48,325 nucleotides of DNA, from NCBI GenBank assembly GCA_016935775.1, contig JAFGQF010000278.1:1-48325 (forward strand). Direction: 5' to 3'. Below the pieces are notes generated by a model, which saw only the letters and a program-made list of their open reading frames with translations, did not search any database and was not told where the DNA came from. The DNA is from a candidate division WOR-3 bacterium (GTDB lineage: Bacteria; Hydrothermota; Tepidihabitantia; Tepidihabitantales; Tepidihabitantaceae). A program made the translations under genes and the position numbers. Numbering within the stretch: the stretch's first letter is position 1; each line of letters starts with the position of its first letter. Below, in pieces: positions 2,354-47,243 of the stretch.

Positions 2354-3199
2354 TCAGTTCTCCCCTTCCCATATCAGCCGCGGGGGGGGCAGATCCCCGC
2401 CCCTGGGGAAAAGCCTCAGCTTCCCGTCCTTCCTTGCCGCTGCGGTCAGGACCCACATGGAATCACACACGCCCGGTAACCGGTAGTGCACCTGAATGAG
2501 GTACGGAAAGCCCGGTGGGATGAAGTATGGGTTGTCGTTGACGTCCGGCGGGACCTCGATGTAGACGACCCGTGTGATTTCCACTTCAGGGAGAACCGGG
2601 TCGGGCGGAACGTCCGCATGCCAGAACCCCCCGCGCAGGTTGCGCAGCATGATCTTCAGCAATACGTCTAGGCGGACCCAGCCAGACAGTTCGTCGGGCA
2701 GGAACTCGCAGCCGCAGTCCTCCAGCAGGAAGTTCAAGTCACTGTCCATGAAATAGAGGCGTTCCCCAAGTGACGCCACCAGTTTATTCTCTGGCGTTAC
2801 GTAGAAGCTGGCTCCAGGCACGACCCTCTCGAAGAACGGGTGCTGCTCGAGCTTCTGCCACAGGCTGTCCTTTCGAACTGCCGGGTAGTAGCTGAACCTG
2901 TCAAGGTACTCCAGGTATGTCATCTGCGCCGGGCCATCAGCCAGGGTGAGCTCGAACTCCTTGTCGTAAAGATCCGACCCCTCATCCGTGTCGACTCGCT
3001 CCAGTCTCGCGGCAGGGTAGACCTCTGGTGAAGTGAGCGGCGGCGGCTCCACCCACCTTGGCGGCTCATGGCTGACCGCAGACTCGCGCGCACTGGTGCT
3101 GCTGTCCCCGGACTGAAGCGACGGCTGCTCGACCGGCGCTTCGACCCCGCCGCATCCCAGCACCACCACCACCGCCGCAATCATCCACGCCCGCAGCAT
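2354..3199 (-). CDS. Hypothetical lipoprotein
   Basis: ORF 2354..3202. The N-terminus MLRAWMIAAVVVVLGCGG has a V-L-G-C lipobox. ATG 3199 is preferred because it lies 6 nt after a -10 box. No family was recognised. Confidence 0.75.
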   Translation of the reverse strand: MLRAWMIAAVVVVLGCGGVEAPVEQPSLQSGDSSTSARESAVSHEPPRWVEPPPLTSPEVYPAARLERVDTDEGSDLYDKEFELTLADGPAQMTYLEYLDRFSYYPAVRKDSLWQKLEQHPFFERVVPGASFYVTPENKLVASLGERLYFMDSDLNFLLEDCGCEFLPDELSGWVRLDVLLKIMLRNLRGGFWHADVPPDPVLPEVEITRVVYIEVPPDVNDNPYFIPPGFPYLIQVHYRLPGVCDSMWVLTAAARKDGKLRLFPRGGDLPPPRLIWEGEN

Positions 3200-3205
3200 C
3201 ACCGC

Positions 3206-3233
3206 ATCATAGTCCGGGCCGGGGATTCGTCAA
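3206..3233 (-). promoter_or_regulatory. Promoter of the leaderless type
   Basis: On the minus strand: TTGACG (3233-3228), 16 nt, TATGAT (3211-3206), 6 nt, ATG (3199). No Shine-Dalgarno is present. Confidence 0.5.
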
Positions 3234-3429
3234 GCGGGAGGTCGCCACACGGGGCACGATGCCGACCGCGACATCACCCTTCTGTCACCCTGAACGCAGT
3301 GAAGGGTCTCAAGCGCGGCCGGGCCAGGGCGGACAGGACAAAGCAGCAGCAGGGCTGCCGCAATCCAAGAAACCCCCTCACCTCCATCCTCTCCCCTTCG
3401 GGGCGAGGAAGGGAATGCCCGGGCGAAGC

Positions 3430-3454
3430 AAAACGGGCGGGAGAGCCCCGCCCG
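3430..3454 (-). terminator. Rho-independent terminator after the metalloprotease gene
   Basis: The minus strand reads CGGGCGGG-GCTCT-CCCGCCCG followed by TTTT(G), 20 nt downstream of the stop at 3475. Confidence 0.55.
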
Positions 3455-3474
3455 CGTGATGGTTTTGCCCGTGC

Positions 3475-5115
3475 TTAGCGGGCTATGACAACCCGGCTGA
3501 GCGCTACTGGATTCTGACTACTGGATGCTGAATACTGCTTGACGAAGTAAACGCCGGGCGCGATTGCGCTGACGTCATTCGCGCCGGGCCGAAGCTGCAT
3601 CACTTCGCGTCCCGTCGCGTCGAGCAGCAGCGCGGGACATGACCCATTTCGGCCCTGCGAAATGGGATCGTGTCCCAAGCCCGCGCCGAGATTGAGCACT
3701 CCCCGCACGACGCTCGGCAACCGGGCCTCCGCCTTCATCCTTCCGCCTTCCGCCTTTTCCTCGATTCCCGTCGCGCTCGCGGTGTAGCGGTAGCCCTGCG
3801 CGCCGTACGGGTAGTGGCTGACCGGCACGAGGTAGACCGACTGGTAGTCGTGGCCGGGCAGGCTGTACTCGCCGTACTGGACCGAGTCGAGCGGGACCGA
3901 ATCGAGCAGCAACCGGTGGCCGACGGTGTCCAGCCCGACGACGTAGAGCCGGAAGTCAGCCGCGTCCGCGCCGTCAAAGGTGAGCGACAGGTCGGTTGCC
4001 TCCTGGAACAGCAGGTACTCACCGGCCCAGCGGTTGAGCGAGCCGTTCCGGTCCACCGGGTAGGTGTAGTGATAGCCCTGGACCGAGAACCGCGGCACGG
4101 TCTCGCCGAAGTAGCCGTACCGGCCGCCGAGGAACGCGGTGTCGTTGATGCGGTTGGCCAGCACCCACTGGTCGAGCACATCCTCGAACCGCTCGACGAG
4201 CCCGGTGTTGGCGAACCCCTCGTCAATGCCGCCGATGCTGACCACCGGCGAGGCGACGATATTACGGATGAGGTCGGTGCCGACGCGGCCGCCGTACTGC
4301 TCGTAGAGGTAGAGGAAGAACAGGTAGGTCTTGATATAGTCCGACCAGTTGCCGTCCCAGCGGGTCAGGTCGTTGTCCGGGTTGCCCGGGAACCCGGATA
4401 TCGGGTCGGGCGCGCCGAACAGCCACATCGCCAGCTCGCAGCCTCCCTCCTGGACCCAGAGCGATTCCGCGCGGTCGTAGTTCCAGCTGATCATGTGCCC
4501 CATCTCGTGGGCGGCGATGGCGACCCGGTAGTCGGACGAGGGGTTGTTCGGGTGGCAGTCGAGGTAGACGCACTCGATCTCGTTCGAGTGGTAGCCGTAC
4601 AGCCGCATCGAGGTGGTGTCGTAGTATTCGTCGAACGCCATCCAGAACCCGTCGAACGAACTGCCCATGAAGGTCCCGATGTTGTAGTAGATGAGGTAGA
4701 TGGCCGAGTCCTGGTCGATTTCGTCCGGCGGCATCCCCAGCACCTCGGTGTTGTGGTCCCAGACGCCCTTGGTCGAGTCGCGCGGGCTGGAATGGTCGAA
4801 CCGCTCGACGATGCGGGCCGCGTCGGCCGAGTCCACCAGGCCCGCGGCCAGCACCGAGTCGTGGACCATCACGTAGCAGTGCGGCCCGTGGTCAAAGACA
4901 ACGAACTCGGCCTGGAACTGGGTAGGCGGCATCACGCTCATGTTCCATATCCAGAGCGTCAGCGTATCGCCGCGCTGGGGCGGCTCGGCCGGCCGGGGTG
5001 AGGTGACGCGGGCCGGGGCGTCGATTCCCCGGGCCATCCGAAGGAACAGCGGGGTGCCGCAGCTCATCGGGGCGGCCGGCTGGGCGACGAGGACCAGTGT
5101 CAGCAGCAGCGTCAT
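3475..5115 (-). CDS. Secreted zinc metalloprotease (HExxH) with a T9SS-type C-terminal sorting domain
   Basis: 546-aa ORF with a signal-like N-terminus MTLLLTLVLVAQPAAP and the motif AAHEMGHM. The C-terminus LPSVVRGVLNL...LLLDATGREVMQLRPGANDVSAIAPGVYFV...RVVIAR is typical of Por/T9SS CTDs. GGGAGGA lies 4 nt before the ATG. Confidence 0.85.
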   Translation of the reverse strand: MTLLLTLVLVAQPAAPMSCGTPLFLRMARGIDAPARVTSPRPAEPPQRGDTLTLWIWNMSVMPPTQFQAEFVVFDHGPHCYVMVHDSVLAAGLVDSADAARIVERFDHSSPRDSTKGVWDHNTEVLGMPPDEIDQDSAIYLIYYNIGTFMGSSFDGFWMAFDEYYDTTSMRLYGYHSNEIECVYLDCHPNNPSSDYRVAIAAHEMGHMISWNYDRAESLWVQEGGCELAMWLFGAPDPISGFPGNPDNDLTRWDGNWSDYIKTYLFFLYLYEQYGGRVGTDLIRNIVASPVVSIGGIDEGFANTGLVERFEDVLDQWVLANRINDTAFLGGRYGYFGETVPRFSVQGYHYTYPVDRNGSLNRWAGEYLLFQEATDLSLTFDGADAADFRLYVVGLDTVGHRLLLDSVPLDSVQYGEYSLPGHDYQSVYLVPVSHYPYGAQGYRYTASATGIEEKAEGGRMKAEARLPSVVRGVLNLGAGLGHDPISQGRNGSCPALLLDATGREVMQLRPGANDVSAIAPGVYFVKQYSASSSQNPVALSRVVIAR

Positions 5116-5124
5116 CGGTCCTCC

Positions 5125-6747: not shown

Positions 6748-6780
6748 CCGGTCTCCTTTCGGTACGGAAAGCGCCGGCTG

Positions 6781-6808
6781 ATTGTGACCCGATTCCCGGG
6801 CCAGTCAA
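6781..6808 (-). promoter_or_regulatory. Promoter for the BNR-protease operon (leadered)
   Basis: On the minus strand: TTGACT (6808-6803), 16 nt, CACAAT (6786-6781). A leader of about 33 nt containing AAGGAG follows, then ATG 6747. Confidence 0.4.
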
Positions 6809-6817
6809 CCCGCGACG

Positions 6818-6845
6818 TTGACAGGCTGCCCGGCAGCGTTAAATT
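6818..6845 (+). promoter_or_regulatory. Promoter of the leaderless type for the CDF gene
   Basis: TTGACA (6818-6823), 16 nt, TAAATT (6840-6845), 6 nt, GTG (6852). Confidence 0.5.
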
Positions 6846-6851
6846 GACGGC

Positions 6852-7751
6852 GTGACCAGCGAGGCCGGGATCCGCGCCGAGCGCCGGGTAACGGCGCTGT
6901 CCATCGTCGTCAACGCAGGGCTCGGGCTGGGCAAGACCGGCGTCGGTCTCGCCGGGCACTCGACCGCGCTGATTGCCGACGGCCTGCACAGCCTCTCCGA
7001 CCTCGCATCCGACCTGGCCGTGCTCTGGGCCATCCGCGCCGCGCGGCGACCGGCCGACGCCGACCACCACTACGGCCACCAACGTTACGAATCGCTGGTG
7101 ACGCTCTTCGTCGGCTTCCTGCTCGTCGCCGCCGCGCTCTATGTCGGCATCCACAGCCTCGTAACCCTGGGCGAGCGCCACACCGGACCGCTGAACTGGT
7201 GGCCGTTCTGGGTCGCGGTCGCCTCGATCCTGCTCAAGGAGGTCCTGTTCTGGCTAACCCGGACGGTCGGCCGCCGCACCAGCAACCGGGCGGTCATCGC
7301 CAATGCCTGGCACCACCGTACCGACTCGTTCTCATCGGTCGCGGCCGCGGCCGGCATCGCCGGCACGCTGCTCGGCGGCCCGCGCTGGCAGTTCCTGGAC
7401 CATCTCACCGGCGTGGTCCTCGCCACCTTCCTCGTCTACGTCGGGGTCCGCATCGCCCGCGACGCCGCCCGCGAGCTGTCCGACCGCTCGCCCGACCCGG
7501 AAGAACAGCAGAGGATGGCGGCCGTCATCGGCTCGATTCCCGGCATCACCGGCTTCCACGCCCTCAGGGCGCGACGCTCGGGCGGGCTCGTCGAAGTGGA
7601 CATCCACGTGCTCGTTGACGGGAACATCACGGTCCGGGCCGGGCACTCGTTGGCGTCCGAGGTCGAGAGCCGGCTGTACGCCGAGTTCCCCGAGGTTGCC
7701 TCGGTAGTGGTCCACGTCGAGCCGGCCGACTCCCGACCGCCAGGCCCCTGA
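6852..7751 (+). CDS. Cation diffusion facilitator family transporter
   Basis: 299-aa ORF. AERRVTALSIVVNAGLGLGKTGVGLAGHSTALIADGLHSLSDLASD...HHYGHQRYESL... shows the CDF TM2/TM5 metal-site pattern (HSLSD; H-D). A C-terminal cytoplasmic domain is present. Confidence 0.9.
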   Translation: MTSEAGIRAERRVTALSIVVNAGLGLGKTGVGLAGHSTALIADGLHSLSDLASDLAVLWAIRAARRPADADHHYGHQRYESLVTLFVGFLLVAAALYVGIHSLVTLGERHTGPLNWWPFWVAVASILLKEVLFWLTRTVGRRTSNRAVIANAWHHRTDSFSSVAAAAGIAGTLLGGPRWQFLDHLTGVVLATFLVYVGVRIARDAARELSDRSPDPEEQQRMAAVIGSIPGITGFHALRARRSGGLVEVDIHVLVDGNITVRAGHSLASEVESRLYAEFPEVASVVVHVEPADSRPPGP

Positions 7752-7759
7752 CGAAGCTC

Positions 7760-7782
7760 GCGCCCCGGGAGTCCCGGGGCGC
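7760..7782 (+). terminator. GC-rich hairpin after the CDF gene (no U-tract)
   Basis: GCGCCCCGGG-AGT-CCCGGGGCGC is a 10-bp perfect stem 9 nt after the stop. It lacks a T-run, so it is a weak terminator call. Confidence 0.35.
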
Positions 7783-7995
7783 AGCCAGACATTCCAGCCG
7801 AAATTAAAAGGGCCGGCGCCAGGAAGGGTTAGGGTTACAGGGGTGGGTGATGCACGGCGGTGAGCCGTGCATGGGGAGGTGTCCTGGCCTCCGGCCCAAA
7901 TTGCCAACTCAGCTTGTTTCGTTCCCTTCCTTCCCCAACTGGCTGATTATACCCTCCCCCGACCCCCTCGTCAAGTTCCTGTTAAGGTGCCCGGT

Positions 7996-8023
7996 TTGAC
8001 AGCCGCCCATCCCCGGCTATCAT
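7996..8023 (+). promoter_or_regulatory. Promoter of the leaderless type for the TPR gene
   Basis: TTGACA (7996-8001), 16 nt, TATCAT (8018-8023), 6 nt, GTG (8030). Confidence 0.5.
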
Positions 8024-8029
8024 CCCGCC

Positions 8030-8797
8030 GTGGCGCACAAACGTCCCGACCGCCGCCGTGCCGGGAAGAAGAAACGGGAGTTCCCGGGCTGGGTGCTCTG
8101 GGCGATCATCGGCGTGGTGGCCGTGTTCGCCCTGGTGATGTTGGCGCGAACCCTGACCACCGCGACCAATCCCGACATCATCATCCCGGTGCTCGCGTCG
8201 GCCAACCCGGACCTGACCGCGCTGACCCGGATGATGGGCGACATCGAGCCCGACACCGCCGGTTTCCAGCCGCCCGAAGACCTCGCCCCGCGCTTCCTGG
8301 TCGTGGACTCGCTGGTCGCCGAGCGCGACTGGCCGACGGCCATTGACCGCCTGCGGTCGCTGGTCAAGCCGGCTCCCGCGGACAAGCTCGCCTACGTCCA
8401 CGAACTGCTGGGCTACTGCTACTACCAGTCGGCCGCGCCCGACCGGGCCCTCAACGAGTTCCGCAAGGAAATCGCCGCCGCGGGCAGCAATTCTTCGCGC
8501 CAGTTCCGGGCCGCGTTCTGCGCCGGGTACCTGTTCCAGTCGCGCGGGTTCGCAGACAGCGCGCTGGTCTTCTACCAGCAGGCGCGCCACTTCGCGCCCG
8601 AAGACTCGGCCGACCCGCTGCTGCCGGCCACGCTCAACAACCTCGGCCTCGCGTACGAGGCAACCGGCGACTCGACCGCCGCCCTCACCGCCTACGGCGC
8701 GGCCGCGGCGCTGCTCGACACCACGGCCGACTCCCGGGCCGCGCGCGTGCTGCGCGACAACCTGCGCCGCCTCGAACCGGTTGTCGTCCCTGACTAG
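8030..8797 (+). CDS. Membrane-anchored tetratricopeptide-repeat protein
   Basis: 255-aa ORF. A basic N-terminus is followed by the TM helix WVLWAIIGVVAVFALVML. TPR-like helices follow (LLGYCYYQSAAPDRALNEF; LNNLGLAYEATGDSTAALTAYGAA). Confidence 0.75.
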   Translation: MAHKRPDRRRAGKKKREFPGWVLWAIIGVVAVFALVMLARTLTTATNPDIIIPVLASANPDLTALTRMMGDIEPDTAGFQPPEDLAPRFLVVDSLVAERDWPTAIDRLRSLVKPAPADKLAYVHELLGYCYYQSAAPDRALNEFRKEIAAAGSNSSRQFRAAFCAGYLFQSRGFADSALVFYQQARHFAPEDSADPLLPATLNNLGLAYEATGDSTAALTAYGAAAALLDTTADSRAARVLRDNLRRLEPVVVPD

Positions 8798-14071: not shown

Positions 14072-15913
14072 CTAGAACGCATGCAGCAATCCCAGGTAGA
14101 AGCGACCCCGGTCCCCGGCCGGCGCGTCCTTCAACCGTTTGCCCCAGTCCACCCGCACCGGGCCGATGGGAGTGCGCACCCGCACCCCGACGCCCGCGCT
14201 GTACTCGAAAGCCGCGAGCGTCAGGCCCTCGTCGGCCGGAGCCACCTCGCCGCCGTCCGCGAACGCGACGAACCCGACCCAACCGAAGATGTATGGCGAG
14301 CGCAGCTCGAGGCTGGTGTTCAGCACCCGCGGGCCGAACCGAAATCCTCCCAGGCTGTCCGGCCCGGTCGAGTCCGGGCCCAACGAACGCTCGGCGTAGC
14401 CACGCAGGCTGTTCCGGCCACCGAGCGTGAACGCCTCGTAGTAGGGTATCGTGGCGGTCCGCTCGCGCGGGAAACCGGCGCCCGCCATCGCCCGGCCGGC
14501 GAGCACGAAACCGGCCGGCAGGGGCAGGAACGCGCGCGCCTCGCCGGTCAACCGGTCGAAGTCGTTAGTCCCGCCCAGCAGGCCGCCGGCCGCCTCGGCC
14601 CCAGCGCGCAGGTAGAAGCCGCGGCGCGAATCGAGCACGTCGTCGCGGTCGTCCCAGGTGGCGTTGAGCGCCAGCGAGTTTGTCAACCCGGAGGTCGTGT
14701 CGGCAACCAGCCGGAACCGGTTGAACAGCCCGAGGCTGAACTCCGGCAGGAAGTTGCGGCTCAAGCCGGTCTCGATGCCGTACTCGCGCCGCACGCTGGT
14801 GTCGGCCAGTTCGTAATAGACGAAAGGGTGAGTCGAGAAGTCCACCCGGGTCAGGATGAGGTAGGGAATCCGGTAGGTCGCGTCCACCGACACCCGGAAG
14901 TCGCCGGTGAAGTTCGGGCTGTACTCGACCCCGGCCTCGAACTGGTGGCCGCGGTTGAACAGGTTGGCGTGCTCCCAGCCGACCGTCGCGAGCGCGCGCC
15001 ACGGCAGCGCCTCGAACCCGCCGCCGAACGACGCGGCCCGGTAGGCCTGCTCGGTCACGTCGAACCGGATGACGACGCTGTCCTTGGTCGAGTCGGGCCT
15101 CAGCACGTAGAACATCACCCGCCGGAACAGCCGGGTGGCGTAGAGCCGGCTCTGGGCGGCGAGCAGCCGGTCGCGACGGAACAGCACGCCCGCCCGCACT
15201 TCGGCCGCGCGCAGGATGGTGGCGGTGCGCACGCTGGTGTTGCCCCGCACCCGGACGGCGGCGACGTGACAGCGACTGCCCTCCTCGACAACGACATCGA
15301 GATACGCCAGCGTGTCCTCGAATCGCCACGCGGCCTCCACCACGGCGAATGGAAACCCCGAGTTCGTGTAGCGCGCGGCAATCGCGTTCTCAGCCGCGAC
15401 GAGCTGGCCAGCCCCGAAACGGTCGCCGGCGCGCACCGGCAACACGGCCAGCAGCTCGGGGTCGGTGAAGAACCGGTTGCCCTCGAACCCGATGCCGGCC
15501 ACCACCGAGCGCGTTCCCTCGCTCACCTGGAAAGTAACGACCTGTTGACGCCGACCGGCCCGGATACCGGGTTCGACCTCGGCCGCTCGGAACCCGTTAT
15601 CACGGTAGAACCGCTCGAGCAACCTGGCATCGGTCGCTGCCCGGGCCTCGACCAAAGGCTGCCCCTTACGTAGGGTAACGACAGTTCGGAGCGCCCGGCC
15701 GGAGAATGCCCGGTTGCCTTCGAACCGCACCGCCTCGACCGTATCGCCGAGCCCGAACTGGCCGGCGACCAGCAATACCAGCAGCAGCGCCGCGCCGGTC
15801 AGCTCAGCTCTCCCTCGAGGCCGGTTCGGGCAAAGCCCGGGCTGATACCATCGCCGGTGATGATACAGTCGGGGTGCGCGGCCTGTCAAACCCCGGCCGT
15901 AATTGACAGGCAT
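14072..15913 (-). CDS. tamA: Omp85-family outer-membrane protein (TamA/BamA-like); start uncertain
   Basis: POTRA-like repeats are present (VEAVRFEGNRAFSGRALRTVV..., VAGIGFEGNRFFTDPELL..., VAAVRVRGNTSVRTATIL...), followed by a C-terminal beta-barrel ending ...GRFYLGLLHAF. ATG 15913 is used here. ORF-track start 16021 would overlap the divergent ATL gene. Promoter logic suggests a possibly later non-ATG start near 15802. Confidence 0.8.
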   Translation of the reverse strand: MPVNYGRGLTGRAPRLYHHRRWYQPGLCPNRPRGRAELTGAALLLVLLVAGQFGLGDTVEAVRFEGNRAFSGRALRTVVTLRKGQPLVEARAATDARLLERFYRDNGFRAAEVEPGIRAGRRQQVVTFQVSEGTRSVVAGIGFEGNRFFTDPELLAVLPVRAGDRFGAGQLVAAENAIAARYTNSGFPFAVVEAAWRFEDTLAYLDVVVEEGSRCHVAAVRVRGNTSVRTATILRAAEVRAGVLFRRDRLLAAQSRLYATRLFRRVMFYVLRPDSTKDSVVIRFDVTEQAYRAASFGGGFEALPWRALATVGWEHANLFNRGHQFEAGVEYSPNFTGDFRVSVDATYRIPYLILTRVDFSTHPFVYYELADTSVRREYGIETGLSRNFLPEFSLGLFNRFRLVADTTSGLTNSLALNATWDDRDDVLDSRRGFYLRAGAEAAGGLLGGTNDFDRLTGEARAFLPLPAGFVLAGRAMAGAGFPRERTATIPYYEAFTLGGRNSLRGYAERSLGPDSTGPDSLGGFRFGPRVLNTSLELRSPYIFGWVGFVAFADGGEVAPADEGLTLAAFEYSAGVGVRVRTPIGPVRVDWGKRLKDAPAGDRGRFYLGLLHAF

Positions 15914-15930
15914 CTCCTCCGGCCTACCCT
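15903..15930 (+). promoter_or_regulatory. Promoter of the leaderless type for the ATL gene
   Basis: TTGACA (15903-15908), 16 nt, TACCCT (15925-15930), 5 nt, GTG (15936). Confidence 0.4.
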
Positions 15931-15935: not shown

Positions 15936-16277
15936 GTGCCACCCGGAACCGATGCCGGCCGCCGGCCCGAATCCTTTGGCCAACGGGTCGCGCGGCTGGT
16001 CAAGGCGATACCTTCGGGCAAGGTGGCGAGCTACGGCCAGCTCGCCCGCCTCGCCGGCAACCCGCGCGGCGCCCGGCTCGTGGTCCGGGTGCTGCACGCG
16101 ATGAGCGAGGCCCACGGCCTGCCCTGGCACCGGGTCATCAGCTCGCAAGGCCGCATATCGCTCACCGGCGAAGGCGGTCGCGTCCAGCGTCAGTTGCTCG
16201 AACAGGAAGGCATCAGGGTCGGCCCAGCGGGTGAGATCCCGCTCGATGTCTACGGTTGGCGACCGGACGAAACCTGA
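15936..16277 (+). CDS. Alkyltransferase-like (ATL) protein, MGMT fold without the acceptor cysteine
   Basis: 113-aa ORF. FGQRVARLVKAIPSGKVASYGQLARLAGNPRGARLVVRVL...GLPWHRVISSQGRISL shows the DNA-binding wing of MGMT. The active-site PCHR is replaced by PWHR. Confidence 0.8.
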   Translation: MPPGTDAGRRPESFGQRVARLVKAIPSGKVASYGQLARLAGNPRGARLVVRVLHAMSEAHGLPWHRVISSQGRISLTGEGGRVQRQLLEQEGIRVGPAGEIPLDVYGWRPDET

Positions 16278-16942: not shown

Positions 16943-17419
16943 ATGCAACTGGCCACGTTCGGAGCAGGCTGCTTCTGGGGTGTTGAGAACAGCTTCCGAC
17001 AGGTTGAGGGAGTGAACCGGACCGCGGTCGGCTACGCCGGCGGCACAACCGAGAACCCGACCTACCAACAGGTCTGCTCGGGCACCACCGGACACGCCGA
17101 AGTCGTCCAGCTCGGATACAACCCGGACAAGGTCAGCTACGACAAGCTGCTCGACATCTTCTTCGCCATCCACGACCCCACGACCAGGAACCGCCAGGGT
17201 CCGGACATCGGCTACCAGTACCGCTCGGTCGTATTCTTCCACAACGACGAACAGCAGGCCGCGGCCGAAGCCAAGGTGAAAGAGCTCACTGAGGCGAAGA
17301 GGTTCAACCGGCCGATAGTCACCGCCATCGAACCCGCGCCAACGTTCTGGCGCGCCGAGGAATACCACCAGCGCTACTACGAAAAGAAAGGCATCAAGGG
17401 CGGCTGCCCGATACGATGA
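16943..17419 (+). CDS. msrA: Peptide-methionine (S)-S-oxide reductase
   Basis: [61 protein letters not shown]... contains the GCFWG motif. GGAGGA lies 6 nt before ATG 16943. ORF-track start 16847 would add a non-conserved 32-aa extension. Confidence 0.9.
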
Positions 17420-17930
17420 CGAAAAGCATGACCCGGTGTCGGTACTCCGAAACAGGTCGTGTCTTGAATCCTCTCGGCACAAGAGAACCGGCCGGAGTGC
17501 CCGTGCCGAACCCGTACCGGACGGGTAACTGAAGCCGGACCGAGAGGACAAGGCCGGACCTGAATCCCAGGGCCGAAACCGGGACGCCCGGATTCCACAG
17601 GTGAATCCCGACAGGAACGCGTAACCTTTTCAGGAACTGTCACCTGCACTCGCTTGCCGCGACCACCCGTGTTGAAGTCGGCATCCTGAAGGACCAGGCC
17701 CCTGAGCCCGCAACTGACCCCAGGGGTCACCCCCCTGCTGATAGCTCGGCTCGAAACCGATTGTCAGGCTGAGTGGATGGTTGGCAACTGACCGGCAGGA
17801 AGCGAGCAAGACCCCCTGCCCCGACGGCAGGGCACCATGTCCGACAGTCTGAAGGCCGAGAGTCATCAGCCGCTCATCTAGCCCTCTTGACCTCCGAGAG
17901 GCAACCCCTTCTTTCTGTTCGCCCGCCCGC

Positions 17931-17958
17931 TTGACACCGGTTTCGGGGTCACTATAGT
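17931..17958 (+). promoter_or_regulatory. Sigma-70-like promoter for tRNA-Val
   Basis: TTGACA (17931-17936), 16 nt, TATAGT (17953-17958), 29 nt before the mature tRNA 5' end. Confidence 0.5.
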
Positions 17959-17987
17959 CTGCACACGTGACTTGCTCCTGGACAACC

Positions 17988-18063
<76 letters not shown>

Positions 18064-18118
18064 CTTACCTGGGTGTGCCGGCGAAAGCCGACACACCCGA
18101 TTGCTTTATGGCGGTACG

Positions 18119-18823
18119 GTGAAGCAGCAGTTCATCCAGTTGCGCGCCCTGCAGGAACTGGACACCGACATAAAGACCCTCTCCGACCGCGCCGGCGAGG
18201 TTCCGAATCGCATCGAGAAGCTGCGCTCGGACCTGGACAAGGCACGGTCCCGGCTTGAGACCGCCCAGGCCGGCATCACCGACCGCAAGAAACAGTACAA
18301 ACTGGCCGAGGTCGAACTCAAGGCCGCCGAAGACAAGATAACGACCTACTCGGTCCAGCTCTACTCGGCCAAGACCAACGAGCAGTACAAGGCTTTCCTG
18401 AAGGAAATCGAGGCCCAGAAGAAGGTGAAGTCGGGCATCGAGGACCGGATGATAGTGTTGATGGAGGAATCCGAGGCGCTCGAGCGGGAGCGGGTCGCGG
18501 CCGAGAAGGAGCACGCCGAACTGGCCCAGGATACCGAGGGCAAGGTGAAGTCGCTCGAAACCGAGCTGGCCGAGATCAAGGCCGCGCTGGCCGAACGCGA
18601 AGCGCATCGCAAGGAGCTGGCCGAGTCCCTGCCGCCGGCCCTGCTGAAGCATTACGAACGGGTCCGAAAGAACAAGAACGGCGTGGCGGTGGTGTCGTGC
18701 AAGGGCGACCGTTGCGGCGGCTGTTTCAACCCGGTGCCGGCCCAGCGGGTGCTGGAAATCGGTCGCGAGGACCGCATCTACACCTGCGAGGCCTGCGGCC
18801 GCATCCTTGTCCCGGACAAGTAA
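18119..18823 (+). CDS. Coiled-coil C4 zinc-ribbon protein (COG1579/DUF164-like)
   Basis: A long heptad-rich coiled coil (QLRALQELDTDIKTLSDRAGEVPNRIEKLRSDLDKARSRLE...) ends in CKGDRCGGCFNPVPAQ...YTCEACGRIL. The start is either GTG 18119 or TTG 18101. Confidence 0.8.
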   Translation: MKQQFIQLRALQELDTDIKTLSDRAGEVPNRIEKLRSDLDKARSRLETAQAGITDRKKQYKLAEVELKAAEDKITTYSVQLYSAKTNEQYKAFLKEIEAQKKVKSGIEDRMIVLMEESEALERERVAAEKEHAELAQDTEGKVKSLETELAEIKAALAEREAHRKELAESLPPALLKHYERVRKNKNGVAVVSCKGDRCGGCFNPVPAQRVLEIGREDRIYTCEACGRILVPDK

Positions 18824-18852
18824 CCGCCCGGCCGGCTGACGGCCATCCAGTC

Positions 18853-19254
18853 GTGTTCATCAACGTTGACGGTTCATCGCTCGGCAACCCGGGCCCGGCC
18901 GGCATCGGCGTGGTCGTAACCTCGGCCGACGGCCGGGTGTTGCGCGAGACGAGCCGGTTCATCGGCCGCCGGACGAACAACCAGGCCGAGTACGAGGCGC
19001 TGGTGCTCGCCCTTGAGCAGGCCCGCGAGTGGCCGAATACCGACGTCGTGGTCCGGACCGATTCCGAACTGGTCTTTCGTCAGCTCGACGGCGCGTACAA
19101 GGTGAAGAACCAACTGCTGCGGCCCCTGTACGAGCGAGCGCGGGAACTGCTGGCCGGGCTGCCTTCGGTGCGGCTCTGCCACGTCCCGCGCGAGGAGAAC
19201 CGCCGGGCCGACAAGCTGGCCAAGGACGCGGCCGAGTCCGGCCGCGAAAGCTGA
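18853..19254 (+). CDS. rnhA: Ribonuclease HI family protein
   Basis: VFINVDGSSLGNPGPAGIGVV...NNQAEYEALVLALE...VRTDSELV...REENRRADKLAK gives a D-E-D-D catalytic pattern. The GTG 18853 start lies inside ORF 18697..19254. Confidence 0.85.
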   Translation: MFINVDGSSLGNPGPAGIGVVVTSADGRVLRETSRFIGRRTNNQAEYEALVLALEQAREWPNTDVVVRTDSELVFRQLDGAYKVKNQLLRPLYERARELLAGLPSVRLCHVPREENRRADKLAKDAAESGRES

Positions 19255-24418: not shown

Positions 24419-26428
24419 TCAGGACACCTCGCTGCCCGGCGCGATCGCCCGGTCCACCGTTACCAACGAGACATCTTCACCCGCGACCGCGGCCAGCAGC
24501 ATCCCGTTAGACTCCACACCGCGGATCTTCGCCGGCTTGAGGTTCGCCACCAGCACGATCGACCGGCCGACCAGGCTCGCCGGGTCGTAAGTCCTACCGA
24601 TGCCGGCGACGACCTGCCGCTGTTCTTCCCCAAGGTCAACCTTCAACTTGAGCAGCTTGTCGGTGCCCTCGACCCGCTCGGCCTCGAGCACCTTCGCGAT
24701 CACCAGCTTGACCCTCCTGAACTCGTCAAACTCCAGCATCTCATCCTCCTCGGCGGCCGGCACGGACGGCTCCGGCGGTGCGCCCAGCTTCGCGACCTGC
24801 GCCTCAATCACCGCATCTTCAATCTTGTTGAAGAGAATCTCGGGCTCGCCCAGTTCGGACGGAACCACGGGCCGGGCCGCGTCATCCCAGCCCCGTCGGC
24901 CCAGGTTCAGCATCCGGCCGAGCTTCGCGCTCGTGAACGGCAGGAAAGGCTGGAACAGCACTTCGAGCGCCGACACCAGCCGAACGCAAGTGTTCATCGT
25001 CCGGTTGCACTGGACCCGGTCGGACTTGAAGGTTCGCCACGGCGCCTGGCCGTCAAAGTAGCGGTTGCCCAGCGCCGGCAGGTTCATCAGCTCGCGCGCC
25101 GCATCCTTGATGCGGAAACCATCAATCATCTTGCCCACCCGGACCGTCGTATCCTCGATTGCCTTCAGCACCTCGAGCCCGGCCGCGTCGTCGGCGGTCG
25201 CATCCGGCACCCGGCCGCCGTAGTTCTTGTGCAGGAAGACCGCCACCCGGTTGACGAAATTGCCGAGCACGTCGGCCAGCTCGTTGTTGTTGCGGGCCAG
25301 GTAGTCGTGCCAGGTGAAGTCCACGTCCCGGTTCTCGGGCAGGTTCAGCGCCAGGGCGTAGCGCAGCGGGTCGGGGGGCAGCTCCGCGAGGTACTCGGGC
25401 AGCCAGACCGCCCAGTTGCGCGAGGTCGAAAGCTTCTTCCCTTCGATGTTGAGAAACTCGTTGGCCGGTATCTCGGCCGGCAGCACCCAGTCACCGTGCG
25501 CCATCAGCATCGCCGGCCAGACCATCGCGTGGAAAACGATGTTGTCCTTGCCGATGAAGTGGACCAGCCTCGTGCCCGGGTCCAGCCAGTAATCCTTCCA
25601 CCGGTCCGGCTGGCCGATGCGCGCGGCCCATTCCTTGGTCGAGGAAATGTAGCCGATGGGCGCGTCGAACAGCCAGACGTACAGCACCTTGCCCGCGGCC
25701 TCGGCCAGCGGCACCGGGACGCCCCACTCGAGGTCGCGGGTGACCGACCGGTCCTGGAGCCCGGCCTTGAACCAGCCCTCGCAGAACCGCTTGACGTTCG
25801 GCTTCCAGTCCGGCTTCGACTCGAGCCACTTCCGCAGCGGCTCCTGGAACTCGGACAGCGCGAAGAACCAGTGGGTCGTCTCCCTGGGCTCGGGCGTGTT
25901 GCCGCAGGTCTTGCAGCGCGGCGCTATCAGCTCGGTCGGCTCGGTCCACCGGCCGCAGGCCTCGCACTGGTCGCCGCGCGCGCCGTCGCTGCCGCAGTAC
26001 GGGCAGGTGCCCTCGACGTAGCGGTCGGCGAGCGACATCCGGCACGAAACGCAGTAGAGCTGCCGCGTGACCCGCGGCTTGATGTATCCCTTGTCGTAGA
26101 CCCGGCGGAAGAAGTCCTGCGCGGTCTTCTGGTGCAGGGGCAGCGAGGTCCGCGAGTAGTTGTCGAACTCGATGCCAAGGTCGGCGAACGACTGCTTGAT
26201 GCGCTCGTGGTAGCGGTCGATGATGACCCGCGGCGTGACTCCCTGCCTGGTCGCGGCCTGCGGGATGGCGACCCCGTGCTCGTCCGAGCCGCAGATGTAG
26301 ACTACGTCCGAACCCTTGAGCCGGTGGTACTTGACGTAGATGTCGGCCGGCAGGTAGGCACCGGCGAGGTGACCGAGATGGATATCTCCGTTGGCGTAAG
26401 GCAGTGCGCTCGTAACCAGTATCCGCAC
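24419..26428 (-). CDS. metG: Methionine--tRNA ligase with a C-terminal tRNA-binding (EMAP-like) domain
   Basis: VRILVTSALPYANGDIHLGHLAGAYLPADIYVKYHRLKG... contains HLGH, a zinc knuckle CPYCGSDGARGDQCEACG and KLSTS. The C-terminus is KLLKLKVDLGEEQRQVVAGI. GTG 26428 sits 7 nt after a -10 box. The upstream 297 codons of the 966-aa ORF are Ser/Pro/Thr-rich junk. Confidence 0.95.
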   Translation of the reverse strand: MRILVTSALPYANGDIHLGHLAGAYLPADIYVKYHRLKGSDVVYICGSDEHGVAIPQAATRQGVTPRVIIDRYHERIKQSFADLGIEFDNYSRTSLPLHQKTAQDFFRRVYDKGYIKPRVTRQLYCVSCRMSLADRYVEGTCPYCGSDGARGDQCEACGRWTEPTELIAPRCKTCGNTPEPRETTHWFFALSEFQEPLRKWLESKPDWKPNVKRFCEGWFKAGLQDRSVTRDLEWGVPVPLAEAAGKVLYVWLFDAPIGYISSTKEWAARIGQPDRWKDYWLDPGTRLVHFIGKDNIVFHAMVWPAMLMAHGDWVLPAEIPANEFLNIEGKKLSTSRNWAVWLPEYLAELPPDPLRYALALNLPENRDVDFTWHDYLARNNNELADVLGNFVNRVAVFLHKNYGGRVPDATADDAAGLEVLKAIEDTTVRVGKMIDGFRIKDAARELMNLPALGNRYFDGQAPWRTFKSDRVQCNRTMNTCVRLVSALEVLFQPFLPFTSAKLGRMLNLGRRGWDDAARPVVPSELGEPEILFNKIEDAVIEAQVAKLGAPPEPSVPAAEEDEMLEFDEFRRVKLVIAKVLEAERVEGTDKLLKLKVDLGEEQRQVVAGIGRTYDPASLVGRSIVLVANLKPAKIRGVESNGMLLAAVAGEDVSLVTVDRAIAPGSEVS

Positions 26429-26435: not shown

Positions 26436-26463
26436 AGAATACGTCGCGCGCCTCCCAAGTCAA
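26436..26463 (-). promoter_or_regulatory. Promoter of the leaderless type for metG-tatD-rsmA
   Basis: On the minus strand: TTGACT (26463-26458), 16 nt, TATTCT (26441-26436), 7 nt, GTG (26428). Confidence 0.5.
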
Positions 26464-26485
26464 GATGGGCGGTGCGCTTGCCGGC

Positions 26486-26513
26486 TTGACAGCGGGACGC
26501 GCGAAAATAGAAT
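26486..26513 (+). promoter_or_regulatory. Promoter of the leaderless type for the rnf operon
   Basis: TTGACA (26486-26491), 16 nt, TAGAAT (26508-26513), 9 nt, ATG (26523). No Shine-Dalgarno is present. Confidence 0.5.
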
Positions 26514-26522: not shown

Positions 26523-27836
26523 ATGCTGACATTCCGCGGCGGCGTCCACCCGCCCGAGTACAAACAGGCCACCGAGCACAAGCCGGTCGAGACGCTGCCC
26601 CTGCCGACCCGGGTTTCCATCCCGATGTCCCAGCACATCGGCACGCCCTCGAAGCCGGTCGTCGCCAAGGGCGACGTCGTCCGGACCGGCACGCTAGTCG
26701 GCGAGCCCACCGGCCGGGTGTCGGTGCCGACCCACGCCTCGGTCTCGGGCACGGTCGCCGACGTGGTGGAGCAGCCCCACCCGCTCACCGCCCAGAAGAC
26801 GGTCTTTGTCGTCATCGACTCCGATGGGCAGGACACGCCGGACGAGGCCATCGGCGAACAGGACCCGGCCGCGCTCTCGCCCGAGCAGCTCGTCGCGGCC
26901 ATCCGCGACGCCGGCGTCGTCGGCATGGGCGGGGCCGCGTTCCCGACCTTCTTCAAGCTCTCCCCGCCCAGAGAGAAGCCCATCAACACCCTGCTCATCA
27001 ACGGCTGCGAGTGCGAGCCGTTCCTGACCGCCGACCACCGGGTGATGCTCGAGCAGCCGGCCGAACTGGTCGAGGGAACCGGGCTGCTGGCCCGCGCGCT
27101 CGGGGTCGACGACGTCATTATCGGGATCGAGAACAACAAGCCCGACGCCATCGAGGCCCTGGCTCGGGCCGTTGCCGGCACCGGCATCAGGGTGCAGGGA
27201 CTGAAGACCAAGTACCCGCAGGGCGCCGAGAAGCAGCTCATCAAGGCCTGCCTATTCCGCGAGGTGCCGTCCGGCGGGCTGCCGATGGACGTCGGCTGCG
27301 TGGTCCAGAACGTCGGCACCGCGGTCGCGGTCCGGGACGCGGTCCGGTTCCGCCGCCCGCTCTACGAGCGGGTCACGACCGTCACCGGCCCGGGCGTCTG
27401 CGACCCGAAGAACCTGCGCGTCCGCGTCGGCACCCCGGTGAGCGAGCTCATCGCCGCCTGCGGGGGCTACAACGGCGAGCCGGCCAAACTCATCATGGGC
27501 GGCCCGATGATGGGTATCGCGGTCCCGGACGACACCGTGCCCGTGCTCAAGGGCACCTCGGGCGTGCTGGTGCTCGACCCGGCCTCGGCCGCCGAGCTCG
27601 AGGACTGCGACTGCATCCGCTGCGGCCGGTGCATCAAGGTCTGCCCGATGGGCCTGGCGCCCCAGCGGCTTTACTACCACATCCGGTCGCGACGGCTCGA
27701 CGACGCCGAGCGGGAACACGTGATGGGCTGCATCGAGTGCGGCTGCTGCGCCTTCGGCTGTCCCGCCCAGATCCGCCTGGTTCACCATTTCAAGTACGCC
27801 AAGTCCGAGGTTTTCGCCCGGCGGAAGAAGAAGTGA
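26523..27836 (+). CDS. rnfC: Rnf electron transport complex subunit C
   Basis: MLTFRGGVHPPEYKQAT...IPMSQHIGTP...GMGGAAFPT...LLINGCECEPFLTADHRVM...CIRCGRCIKVCPMGL...CIECGCCAFGCPAQI matches RnfC. Confidence 0.95.
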   Translation: MLTFRGGVHPPEYKQATEHKPVETLPLPTRVSIPMSQHIGTPSKPVVAKGDVVRTGTLVGEPTGRVSVPTHASVSGTVADVVEQPHPLTAQKTVFVVIDSDGQDTPDEAIGEQDPAALSPEQLVAAIRDAGVVGMGGAAFPTFFKLSPPREKPINTLLINGCECEPFLTADHRVMLEQPAELVEGTGLLARALGVDDVIIGIENNKPDAIEALARAVAGTGIRVQGLKTKYPQGAEKQLIKACLFREVPSGGLPMDVGCVVQNVGTAVAVRDAVRFRRPLYERVTTVTGPGVCDPKNLRVRVGTPVSELIAACGGYNGEPAKLIMGGPMMGIAVPDDTVPVLKGTSGVLVLDPASAAELEDCDCIRCGRCIKVCPMGLAPQRLYYHIRSRRLDDAEREHVMGCIECGCCAFGCPAQIRLVHHFKYAKSEVFARRKKK

Positions 27837-35364: not shown

Positions 35365-35366
35365 GG

Positions 35367-43154: not shown

Positions 43155-43155
43155 C

Positions 43156-44808: not shown

Positions 44809-44811
44809 CGC

Positions 44812-45627
44812 CTAGACGAACGGGTCCGGGATACCCTTGACCTGGTCCCAGGTGAGGACCGGGCCGTCCTTGCAGGTGAAGTACGGTCCCAGCTTGCAGT
44901 GGCCGCACTGGCCGAGGCCGCAGGACATGTTGGTTTCCATCGACAGGTAGATGTTCTGGCCCTGGAAACCGGCCTCGAGCAGCTTCATCGTCACGAACTT
45001 CATCATTATCGGCGGCCCGCAGACCACGGCGATGCTCTCCGCCTCGTTGCAGGGTATCTCGTCCATCAGGCAGGTGACGACGCCGACCTTCTTCATCCAC
45101 TTCTCGTCCGAGACGTCCACCGACAGGTCGATGTCGACCTTCTTCAGCTTCTCCCATTCCGGGATCAGGTACTTGTAGACGATATCGGCCGGGGTCCGCG
45201 CGCCGTAGCGGAGAAAAACCCGGCCGTACTTGTCGATCTCGTGGGTCAGAGCGAGGAAGAGCGCGCGCAGCGGGGCCAGCCCGACGCCGCCGCCGACGAT
45301 GTAGATATCCCGTCCCTCGAACTTCTCGAGCGGGTAGCGGGCACCGTACGGCCCGCGGATGCCGACCTTGTCCCCGACCTTGAAATTGAAGAGCGCGCCG
45401 GTCGCCCGGCCCACCTTCATTATCGTCATCTCGATGAGGTCGCGGTTGAAATGGGATGAACTGGGCGTGAACGGCGCCTCGCCGAACCCGGGCATCGTCA
45501 GTTCGATGAACTGCCCGGCAAGAAACGGCACCTCCTGCTCGGGTCTGAGCACGAAGGTACGGATGTTCGGGGTCTCGTCAATCGTCTTGATGATCTCGGC
45601 CGAGATGGGCTGGAAGATGTTGGTCAT
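44812..45627 (-). CDS. FAD/NAD(P)-binding oxidoreductase with a C-terminal [2Fe-2S] (AsrB / sulfhydrogenase gamma HydG / PyrK-like)
   Basis: The sequence runs MTNIFQPISAEIIKTIDETPNIRTFVL...APFTPSS...IVGGGVGLAPL...MSCGLGQCGHCKLG. The ATG lies inside ORF 44812..45933. ATGA overlap. Confidence 0.85.
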   Translation of the reverse strand: MTNIFQPISAEIIKTIDETPNIRTFVLRPEQEVPFLAGQFIELTMPGFGEAPFTPSSSHFNRDLIEMTIMKVGRATGALFNFKVGDKVGIRGPYGARYPLEKFEGRDIYIVGGGVGLAPLRALFLALTHEIDKYGRVFLRYGARTPADIVYKYLIPEWEKLKKVDIDLSVDVSDEKWMKKVGVVTCLMDEIPCNEAESIAVVCGPPIMMKFVTMKLLEAGFQGQNIYLSMETNMSCGLGQCGHCKLGPYFTCKDGPVLTWDQVKGIPDPFV

Positions 45628-46667
45628 TGCAGGACGTCCAGGACCACCTTGCGCACATCGATCTTGCCCATACAGACCGCGGTACAGCGACCGCAACCCG
45701 AGCAGGCGGGCATCCCCTGCCAGGTCTTGAAATGGCTGAACTTGCAGAAAAAACGGTTGTAGAACCGCTTGACGAACTCGGCGCGCGGGTTGGCCCCGCC
45801 GCCGACCCGGGCATAAGCCGCGATGTAGCAGGCGTCCCAGACCTTGGTCCGCTCCATCTCGCCCTGCCCCCTGGCCTTGTCGTAGAGCAAGAAGCAGTAG
45901 CAGGTCGGGCAGGCCATCAGGCAGCCGTAACACTCGACGCAGTCGGCCGCGTGCTTCGACCAGAACTCCTTGTCCTGGTTCCGTTGCCAGATCCGGTCGG
46001 CCGTGTCCGGGGCGAAGCGCTTCGGGTTCACCTCGGCCAGCCGCTTGCCGGCGGCCTCGCGGCTCGCCTGTCGCGCCGCGAGTTGGGCCTCGGTCGCCTC
46101 GACCGCTTGGGAACTCCCCAGTAATTCCTCGCCCCGCCCGGTCAGCGGCTCCAGCACCCAGCCGCCCTCGACCACCGACAGGGCGACATCGGCCTCGTCC
46201 TTCTCCTCGTCGCCGGCAAAGGGCCGGTTGCCGACGAGGTTGCAGAAACAGGTGTCGGCCGGGCTCGGGCAGTCGGCGACGACAACGCAGGTCGCTGCGC
46301 GGCGCCGGGCGTAGGCTTCATCCTTGAAATCGCCCTCGACGAACATCTTGCGGTTCACGCGCAGGGCGACCGCGTCGCAGGCTGAAGCCCCGAACAAAAC
46401 CCGTTTCTCGGGCTCGGGCGAGACGAACTTGTCCGGGAAGGTGGCGACCTTCTCGCGCGGGTTGAAGAAGAAACTCTTGACCGGCTCCGACGCCCGGATG
46501 CGCTCGAGTCCCCACTCCGGTGCGTCGGCTGCGCCCAACATCCCGGGGTCGAGCCGCTGCCAGTGGACCTGGTCCTTGATTATCGCCGGGAAAAACACCA
46601 CCCGGTCCGCGACAAGAACCGACAGCCAGGCCTTCTGCTTCTCTGTCGGGAGAAACCGGGGCTTCAC
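45624..46667 (-). CDS. 4Fe-4S protein of the AsrA / sulfhydrogenase beta (HydB) type
   Basis: 347 aa from GTG 46667. CVECYGCLMACPTCYCF and CSGCGRCTAVCMGKID are present. The upstream part of the 514-aa ORF is Arg/Gly/Asp-rich junk and contains the promoter. Confidence 0.8.
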   Translation of the reverse strand: MKPRFLPTEKQKAWLSVLVADRVVFFPAIIKDQVHWQRLDPGMLGAADAPEWGLERIRASEPVKSFFFNPREKVATFPDKFVSPEPEKRVLFGASACDAVALRVNRKMFVEGDFKDEAYARRRAATCVVVADCPSPADTCFCNLVGNRPFAGDEEKDEADVALSVVEGGWVLEPLTGRGEELLGSSQAVEATEAQLAARQASREAAGKRLAEVNPKRFAPDTADRIWQRNQDKEFWSKHAADCVECYGCLMACPTCYCFLLYDKARGQGEMERTKVWDACYIAAYARVGGGANPRAEFVKRFYNRFFCKFSHFKTWQGMPACSGCGRCTAVCMGKIDVRKVVLDVLQ

Positions 46668-46677
46668 GTGGACGCCA

Positions 46678-46705
46678 AAAATACAGATTTTGACCTGGAT
46701 GTCAA
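46678..46705 (-). promoter_or_regulatory. Promoter of the near-leaderless type for the 18-gene hydrogenase operon
   Basis: On the minus strand: TTGACA (46705-46700), 16 nt, TATTTT (46683-46678), 10 nt, GTG (46667). Confidence 0.5.
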
Positions 46706-46744
46706 GCCGAACATCGCCCGCGCGTTGACGAGCCGACGCGCGGC

Positions 46745-46772
46745 TTGACCGGGTCTCCGCCGACAGCAGAAT
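46745..46772 (+). promoter_or_regulatory. Promoter of the leaderless type for the DUF1893 gene
   Basis: TTGACC (46745-46750), 16 nt, CAGAAT (46767-46772), 6 nt, ATG (46779). Confidence 0.4.
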
Positions 46773-46778
46773 AGTCCA

Positions 46779-47243
46779 ATGCAGCAACCGCACGGCCGGC
46801 CCCTGTCCCCCGCCGACACGGCGCTGCTCGACCGCCTTGAAGCCGAAGGGCTGACGGCCCTGGTGGTCAGCAAGAACAGCGAGCTGCATCGTTCCTCGGC
46901 GCCCGGCGTGGCCCCGCTGCTCGAACTGCTGGAGCGATTCCCGCAGGGACTCGCCGGCGCGACGGTCGCCGACCGCGTGGTCGGGACCTGCGCCGCCCGG
47001 GTATTCATCCACCTGCGTGTCAACCGGGTGCTGGCGCTTGTCGGTTCGGTCGGCGCGCGGGCCATCCTCGACGCCGCCGGTGTCGAGTTCCACGCCCGGC
47101 GCGGAGTCCTCGAGATCCGCAACCGCGCCGGCACCGACGCCTGCCCGTTCGAACAGCTCGCCCGGCACCTGCGCCGGCCCGCAGAACTCATTCCCGCGAT
47201 GCGCCGGCGGCTGGCCGAGCTCAGGTCAGGTGCAACCCGATGA
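46779..47243 (+). CDS. DUF1893 (TM1506-like) domain protein
   Basis: 154 aa. ...GVAPLLELLERFPQGLAGATVADRVVGTCAARVFIHLRVNRVLALVGSVGARAILDAAGVEFHARRGVLEIRNRAGTDACPFEQL matches the DUF1893 pattern as I recall it. Confidence 0.6.
   Translation: MQQPHGRPLSPADTALLDRLEAEGLTALVVSKNSELHRSSAPGVAPLLELLERFPQGLAGATVADRVVGTCAARVFIHLRVNRVLALVGSVGARAILDAAGVEFHARRGVLEIRNRAGTDACPFEQLARHLRRPAELIPAMRRRLAELRSGATR

Follow-up and report, generated by a model that had tools for sequence, protein, structure and literature searches.

How translation begins at genes whose promoter ends almost on the start codon is the question raised by a 48,325-nucleotide stretch of DNA from a candidate division WOR-3 bacterium (GenBank contig JAFGQF010000278.1; hereafter, the window). 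The window is the entire contig C23 of a metagenome-assembled genome (MAG; G000) that comprises 1.85 Mb in 297 contigs, has a GC content of 68%, and is 86.7% complete. In the NCBI taxonomy, the identifier of candidate division WOR-3 now carries the name Caldifarciminota. The initial annotation of the window described eight genes, each first in its transcription unit, that lack a Shine-Dalgarno sequence and instead have a promoter ending 5-10 nt upstream of the start codon, and it proposed that leaderless translation is widespread in the organism. This proposal gains support from a sharp peak in the promoter-to-start distance, the absence of Shine-Dalgarno sites at the starts concerned, the restriction of the layout to first genes, a switch in codon usage at the start codon, and conservation among relatives. 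On the basis of these sequence comparisons, leaderless or near-leaderless transcription from RpoD promoters that abut the start codons is, with high confidence, the best explanation of the layout.

The strict motif is defined here as TTGACN-16-TANNNT, and d denotes the number of nucleotides between the end of the -10 box and the start codon. The window harbors 11 strict motifs, as compared with 0.22 ± 0.48 in 100 dinucleotide-preserving shuffles, and seven of the 11 end 5-10 nt upstream of a gene start. All eight layouts originally listed can be read in the sequence as described; seven are strict, while the eighth has a -10 box (CAGAAT) without the first T. On the minus strand, TTGACG-16-TATGAT (3206-3233) lies 6 nt from the ATG at 3199 of gene 2354-3199, for which no Pfam match was found; the longest open reading frame (ORF) would begin at GTG 3202, just 3 nt from the -10 box. 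On the plus strand, TTGACA-16-TAAATT (6818-6845) is 6 nt from GTG 6852 of a cation-efflux CDF gene (6852-7751), TTGACA-16-TATCAT (7996-8023) is 6 nt from GTG 8030 of a TPR protein gene (8030-8797), and TTGACA-16-TACCCT (15903-15930) is 5 nt from GTG 15936 of an MGMT-fold/ATL gene (15936-16277).

The remaining four layouts belong to two divergent gene pairs. The metG gene (24419-26428, minus strand; 669 residues) starts with GTG 26428, 7 nt from TTGACT-16-TATTCT (26436-26463, minus strand), and the divergent rnfC (26523-27836, plus strand) starts with ATG 26523, 9 nt from TTGACA-16-TAGAAT (26486-26513, plus strand). In the second pair, the gene for an AsrA-like Fer4_22 protein (45624-46667, minus strand), which is the first gene of a hydrogenase operon, starts with GTG 46667, 10 nt from TTGACA-16-TATTTT (46678-46705, minus strand), and a DUF1893 gene (46779-47243, plus strand) starts with ATG 46779, 6 nt from TTGACC-16-CAGAAT (46745-46772, plus strand). 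Genome-wide, the variant class to which this last promoter belongs (TTGACN followed by a -10 box of the form [not T]ANNNT) also has its distance peak at 6 nt. As first reported, GTG serves as the start codon in five of the eight cases, and several starts, namely those at 3199, 26428, and 46667, differ from the start of the longest ORF. The promoters of each divergent pair stand back to back (26436-26513 and 46678-46772). For metG/rnfC, the intergenic region measures 94 bp and the -35 boxes are only 22 bp apart; for the asrA-like/DUF1893 pair, the values are 111 bp and 39 bp, leaving scant space for regulators.

Whether this arrangement extends beyond the window was examined throughout the MAG. 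Matches to TTGAC...TANNNT number 3, 315, 111, 25, and 24 for spacers of 15, 16, 17, 18, and 19 nt, respectively, such that 426 of the 478 matches have a 16- or 17-nt spacer, with 16 nt predominating. The starts called by a codon log-odds gene caller were rejected: this caller merged metG with antisense rnfC, as well as the asrA-like gene with the DUF1893 gene in antisense, and Pfam backed the promoter-adjacent starts in these cases. The distance statistics were therefore anchored on the motif and are independent of called starts, scoring any start codon that begins an ORF of 60 codons or more whose codon-usage score is positive. For motifs with a 16-nt spacer, 30, 42, 23, 17, and 14 such starts are found at d = 5, 6, 7, 8, and 9, respectively, as opposed to ~5 per position elsewhere; for the 17-nt spacer, the corresponding numbers are 7, 12, 6, 10, and 8. 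A coding start at d = 5-9 is found for 126 of the 315 spacer-16 motifs and 43 of the 111 spacer-17 motifs, i.e., for ~40% of strict promoters. The genome-wide distance distribution is not flat but sharply peaked at 5-9 nt, and its mode is 6 nt whether the analysis is anchored on the motif or on ORFs.

Counting from the ORFs, 166 strict sites precede 163 of the 1514 5'-complete ORFs (~11%). When one deviation is allowed in either box, the number rises to ~257 sites, which is ~197 over the local background (~13-17% of 5'-complete genes). The layout is present at 78 of the 280 genes (28%) that have a divergent upstream neighbour and at none of the 603 genes that follow a co-directional gene at a distance of up to 20 nt. 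By a rough estimate, ~25-35% of the transcription units of the MAG carry the leaderless-type layout.

Four independent lines of evidence, i.e., Pfam profiles, homologues, codon usage, and the mix of start codons, argue that the promoter-adjacent starts are the real gene starts. Position 1 of the MetRS Pfam profile coincides with residue 3 counted from GTG 26428, and position 2 of the RnfC_N profile with residue 3 counted from ATG 26523. The MGMT profile begins within a few residues of the GTG 15936 start, and the next in-frame start, 29 codons downstream, would truncate the domain. The longest metG ORF, of 966 residues from 27319 on the minus strand, would run antisense across rnfC. MetRS homologues are mostly 660-690 residues long, with many at 664-670, and the promoter-based start gives 669 residues. 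At the 60 promoter-adjacent starts whose frame stays open for 15 or more codons upstream, the codon-usage log-odds per codon change from -0.29 upstream to +0.31 downstream of the start, and the GC content of third codon positions rises from 0.66 to 0.85, with the expected direction in 98% of cases; internal in-frame NTG codons show no codon-usage switch. The start codons at the 166 strict sites are ATG in 86, GTG in 72 (43%), and TTG in 8, such that TTG is depleted (5% of promoter-adjacent starts versus 25% of random in-frame NTG codons). The initial annotation had suggested that the promoter offers an independent means of fixing start codons. Consistent with this, 68 of the 166 promoter-adjacent starts (41%) are not those of the longest ORF, and the public database call for the MetRS of the window, at 733 residues, is 64 codons too long.

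In this MAG, the start codon also varies with the distance to the promoter, with GTG in 29 of 35 starts at d = 5 and mostly ATG at d = 7 (20 of 28) and d = 9 (18 of 23). In G045, an AT-rich relative of the same class, d = 5 is common even though nearly all promoter-adjacent starts are ATG. Mis-called starts were considered as the source of the GTG excess at d = 5; this was rejected for GTG 15936, where no other start preserves the domain. One possibility is that the excess reflects the choice of the initiating nucleotide by the polymerase.

The ribosome-binding signals of the remaining genes are of the conventional type. GGAG or GAGG at positions -18 to -4 is found at 1% of promoter-adjacent starts as compared with 10% of internal NTG codons, which extends genome-wide the lack of Shine-Dalgarno sequences noted for the eight genes. 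At the candidate starts of other genes, GGAGG peaks at spacings of 4-7 nt (125, 102, 66, and 50 occurrences versus ~11), and a 5-mer Shine-Dalgarno site is present in 555 of these 1351 genes. This peak, together with the absence of the layout behind close co-directional genes, bears out the description of internal operon genes as relying on GGAGG-like sites or overlaps. Taken together, the Shine-Dalgarno peak at other genes, the Shine-Dalgarno-free promoter-adjacent starts, and the operon context indicate that the genome uses two modes: many first genes have promoter-fused starts, and the remaining genes rely on Shine-Dalgarno sites or overlaps. The 16S rRNA gene was not found in the MAG (87% complete). 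In four family- or order-level relatives (G006, G008, G010, and G021), the 16S rRNA ends in GGATCACCTCCTTT, which is an intact anti-Shine-Dalgarno tail (CCUCC).

Conservation was followed in relatives at three loci and then across the phylum. The name candidate division WOR-3 bacterium is carried by MetRS homologues at 58-71% identity, and the protein's own lineage is made up of uncultured MAGs at 67-73% identity. Outside this lineage, the closest MetRS proteins come from Calditrichota, Cloacimonadota, Latescibacterota, and Gemmatimonadota, at ~46-57% identity. At metG, promoter and start codon are directly adjacent in all genus-level relatives examined and in nearly all family-level ones (the exception being G012), in most families of the order at 29-68% GC (the exception being f5), in G045 as the sole class-level genome examined, and also in two families elsewhere in the phylum. 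Six other families have metG behind a Shine-Dalgarno site or within an operon. The boxes and the distance are conserved among relatives while the spacer sequence is variable, and the start is ATG in low-GC relatives and GTG or TTG in high-GC ones. At both the metG and the asrA-like loci, the start codon follows genomic GC and the geometry is kept, with ATG at 29-47% GC and GTG or TTG at 46-68% GC.

The rnfC layout is the same in five relatives (G001, G004, G008, G017, and G018), with a distance of 8-10 nt and a variable spacer sequence; the RnfC N-terminus ML(T/K)F.GG is conserved in four of the five, and that of G018 reads MSNFRGG. For the asrA-like gene, the start codon is aligned in 15 relatives, and the promoter is kept against the start in 13 of these, at genus and family level, with a distance of 7-10 nt and a variable spacer sequence. 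The start is GTG in nine genomes including G000 and ATG in two genomes at order level; five genomes at family level (G005, G006, G007, G009, and G013) have TTG, placed directly behind the promoter. The genes divergent from this promoter vary between genomes, and most of them still have promoter-fused starts. For metG, rnfC, and the asrA-like gene alike, the positions of promoter and start are retained among relatives at 29-68% GC.

In a survey of 121 WOR-3 genomes, matches to TTGACN{17,18}TANNNTN{5,8}RTG were compared with matches to the same pattern carrying N{15,18} before the start codon. The counts for G000 are 184 versus 44. The ratio is 2.4-4.0 fold in the family and 2.9-4.9 fold in the order, and genomes of the class have 280-409 sites each at 2.6-3.6 fold. 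Most other families show 1.4-2.9 fold, and seven (f17, f20, f22, f24, f29, f31, and f32) show no more than ~1.5 fold, based on few sites, apart from one f22 genome with a higher ratio. The reversed pattern used as a control gives 0 matches versus 184 in G000 and is near zero in high-GC genomes. When anchored on ORFs, 42 of 88 spacer-16 promoters of G045 (41% GC) lie 5-8 nt from the start; the peak is also seen in G008, of the same family as the window, and is weaker in G062, a genome of another class with 31% GC. The preference for a 16-nt spacer is common to all three. Judged across these genomes, the layout characterises whole genomes throughout the class and is not a local element.

The boxes are those expected of housekeeping promoters. 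Aligned strict sites have the consensus cTTGAC(a/t)-16-(C)TAnnaT, with C in 65% of sites just upstream of the -10 box (position -13). An extended -10 element (TGn) was considered and is absent from the aligned sites, in which C at -13 is favoured instead. The frequency of TANNNT peaks only at 5-8 nt from the start and is flat at 20-40 nt. The same boxes are found ~115 nt upstream of the 16S rRNA genes in the four relatives with the GGATCACCTCCTTT tail and upstream of the tRNA-Val gene of the window. Matches to PF00140 locate rpoD on contig C114 of the MAG, where a 597-residue ORF with region 1.2 has canonical recognition helices in regions 2.4 and 4.2 and contains ATWWIKQAITRAIADQSR. The RpoD N-terminus is rich in lysine and arginine, and rpoD (~17290-19085, minus strand) is itself leadered, with GGAGAGGAG, a Shine-Dalgarno site, before its ATG.

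Spacers of 16 nt outnumber those of 17 nt by ~3:1 in G000 and by 2-5:1 in the relatives sampled from the family, class, and phylum; the counts are 88:19 in G045, 67:16 in G062, and 52:26 in G008. In a promoter survey of 49 species, 17 bp is the predominant spacer (PMC12641261), and for this reason the 3:1 preference for 16 bp is regarded as a small peculiarity of the lineage.

In the mechanism proposed for the promoter-adjacent genes, the housekeeping sigma-70 factor (RpoD) would recognize a -35 box of TTGACa and a -10 box of TAnnnT, preferably separated by 16 bp. Initiation at the usual 6-8 nt past the -10 box would make +1 either the A or G of the start codon or a nucleotide no more than a few bases away; for the modal d of 6, where the -10 box occupies positions -12 to -7, +1 and the first base of that codon would coincide. 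The first gene of a unit would then be read from a leaderless or near-leaderless mRNA (0-4 nt), and its translation would dispense with a Shine-Dalgarno interaction; presumably, the 5'-terminal AUG or GUG would be bound by 70S ribosomes or in an IF2-dependent manner. Downstream operon genes and leadered units would employ GGAGG-type Shine-Dalgarno sites or stop/start overlaps. We infer where transcription begins, and how translation is initiated, from this geometry and from the behaviour of the GeneMarkS-2 group C genomes compared at the end of the text.

Several considerations weigh against leaderless initiation as the full account. Sites with d = 9-10, as at rnfC and the asrA-like gene, may carry a leader of 2-4 nt and would not be strictly leaderless; for the asrA-like gene, a leader of ~3-4 nt is possible. 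In E. coli, a 5'-terminal GTG or TTG is poor for leaderless initiation. The intact anti-Shine-Dalgarno tail attributed to the host is taken from the 16S rRNA of its relatives. Finally, the per-operon share is approximate, the gene calls come from a simple in-house method, and the MAG is 87% complete in 297 contigs.

The alternative that survives best, and that is nonetheless improbable, accepts the promoters as real and holds that they produce very short (2-5 nt) leaders without a Shine-Dalgarno sequence, with initiation that is not strictly 5'-terminal and proceeds by scanning or by standby 30S subunits on unstructured 5' ends. About a quarter of the strict sites do lie at d = 8-9, and rnfC and the asrA-like gene keep 8-10 nt and 7-10 nt, respectively, in relatives. 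However, at the mode of 6 nt the canonical +1 coincides with the first base of the codon, the short interval between the -10 box and the start contains no sequence signal, and leaders of 5 nt or less are conventionally grouped with leaderless mRNAs.

A second alternative, for which the chances are very small, regards TAnnnT as an AT-rich translation signal on longer mRNAs, acting through S1 binding or lack of structure, with TTGAC being coincidental or part of another element. AT-rich regions upstream of starts do favour initiation in many bacteria. Yet TTGAC accompanies the -10 box at a constant distance of 16 or 17 nt (315 and 111 occurrences, respectively, versus 3 at 15 nt), and the excess of -10 boxes alone near starts (~170) is about equal to that of the bipartite motif. 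The same bipartite motif stands upstream of tRNA and rRNA genes, RpoD retains its DNA-recognition regions, and the boxes are conserved while the spacer sequences are not. Least likely of all is a chance or compositional artefact, or a choice of starts made to fit the motif: high GC does provide many open frames and in-frame GTG codons, so that a start is often available near any motif, but 11 motifs are observed versus 0.22 in shuffles, the reversed pattern gives 0 matches versus 184, the motif-anchored distances are peaked rather than flat, and both the coding switch and the N-termini of homologues are independent of the motif.

Leadered promoters are also present in the window. The initial annotation listed three with the same boxes; all three are present, but the likeness is incomplete for two of them. 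TTGACA-17-TATTCT (851-879, plus strand), followed by GGAGAGG and GTG 894, has a spacer of 17 rather than 16 nt, and TTGACT-16-CACAAT (6781-6808, minus strand), followed by AAGGAG and ATG 6747, has a deviating -10 box. The third, TTGACA-16-TATAGT (17931-17958, plus strand), lies 29 nt upstream of tRNA-Val (17988-18064). A fourth leadered promoter, additional to these, is TTGACC-16-TATGCT (466-493, minus strand), which is followed after ~50 nt by GAGGAGG and GTG 410. The strict motifs of the window that do not abut genes are those at tRNA-Val and at 466-493, one overlapping 851-879, and one inside a gene. The two overlapping promoter-like motifs (825-852 and 851-879, plus strand) are located at the border of a pyrimidine-rich repeat region upstream of GTG 894, and only 851-879, with its 17-nt spacer, is sensibly positioned relative to GGAGAGG. 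The intragenic motif, TTGACG-16-TACCTT (45554-45581, minus strand), lies shortly beyond the asrA-like gene, in the next gene of the hydrogenase operon (its second), and could be an internal promoter or a rare chance match.

For annotation in this lineage, the promoter offers an independent and conserved marker of start codons. This matters since wrong N-termini propagate to the protein databases and structure predictions of an uncultured phylum. Recognisable promoters would also aid operon and regulon prediction as well as heterologous expression, for instance of the Rnf and Mrp-hydrogenase clusters in the window. WOR-3 (Caldifarciminota) would be added to the phyla with frequent leaderless genes, beyond Actinobacteria and Deinococcus-Thermus. 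The layout itself is already known in other phyla and opens no new mechanism. A bolder and tentative suggestion is that a leaderless initiation tolerant of GUG and UUG, the uniform promoters with their 16-bp optimum, the fusion of a third to half of the promoters to starts, and the drift from ATG to GTG or TTG with GC amount to a distinctive style of the class. If true, this would provide an independent, deep-branching, and partly thermophilic lineage in which to test the efficiency of non-AUG leaderless initiation and whether the geometry of RNA polymerase and sigma factor departs from the 17-bp rule.

Searches of the literature for WOR-3 or Caldifarciminota together with leaderless genes, and for WOR-3 transcription start sites, found no paper. 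The layout is compared here with systems described in other taxa. The closest is group C of GeneMarkS-2, in which a Pribnow box lies 6-8 nt from the start of operon-first genes, a ribosome-binding-site (RBS) model fits the other genes, and 25-50% of operons are affected (bioRxiv 10.1101/193490). Group C comprises 90% of Actinobacteria (e.g., Mycobacterium tuberculosis) and 97% of Deinococcus-Thermus (e.g., Deinococcus deserti), while 90% of the FCB group belongs to group B (bioRxiv 10.1101/193490). The WOR-3 genome resembles group C in the short fixed distance of the -10 box from the start (a 5-9 nt peak with a mode of 6 nt), which is reproduced in G045 and G008, and in the absence of an RBS at promoter-adjacent genes combined with Shine-Dalgarno sites at internal and leadered genes. 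The fraction of operons involved is substantial in both, amounting here to 28% of genes in divergent context by the strict motif and ~200-257 of 1514 genes by the relaxed one, these figures being approximate, and in both, gene callers that consider only an RBS mis-set the starts. In contrast, the list of group C taxa does not include WOR-3 (Caldifarciminota), the WOR-3 genome has a 16-bp spacer optimum, and the FCB group, from which the nearest non-WOR-3 MetRS relatives come, is mostly group B. Mycobacterial promoters, unlike those of WOR-3, are not known to have a very strong -35 box (TTGAC) accompanying the -10 box.

Two further GeneMarkS-2 classes were considered and ruled out. Group B, the Bacteroidota-type non-Shine-Dalgarno RBS, is incompatible with the GGATCACCTCCTTT 16S tails, the use of GGAGG, the presence of a -35 box, and the absence of the signal before internal operon genes. 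The archaeal-type group D, with a TATA box ~26 nt upstream, is incompatible with the flat frequency of TANNNT at 20-40 nt.

The TA-led genes of Zheng et al. (2011) carry TANNNT ~10-12 bp upstream of the translation start; its three middle positions are little informative in high-GC genomes, and the signal was read as the -10 box of leaderless genes (PMC3160421). The same TANNNT signal occurs near starts here. The differences are that the survey of 953 genomes (PMC3160421) is older than any WOR-3 genome, and that a -35 box and conservation over 29-68% GC are documented in the present case. With respect to the canonical sigma-70 promoter (TTGACA-17-TATAAT), the WOR-3 promoters share the hexamers, RpoD regions 2.4 and 4.2, and the occurrence of the boxes before stable-RNA genes. 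They differ from it in favouring a 16-bp over a 17-bp spacer and in having C (65%) upstream of the -10 box in place of the TG of an extended -10 element.

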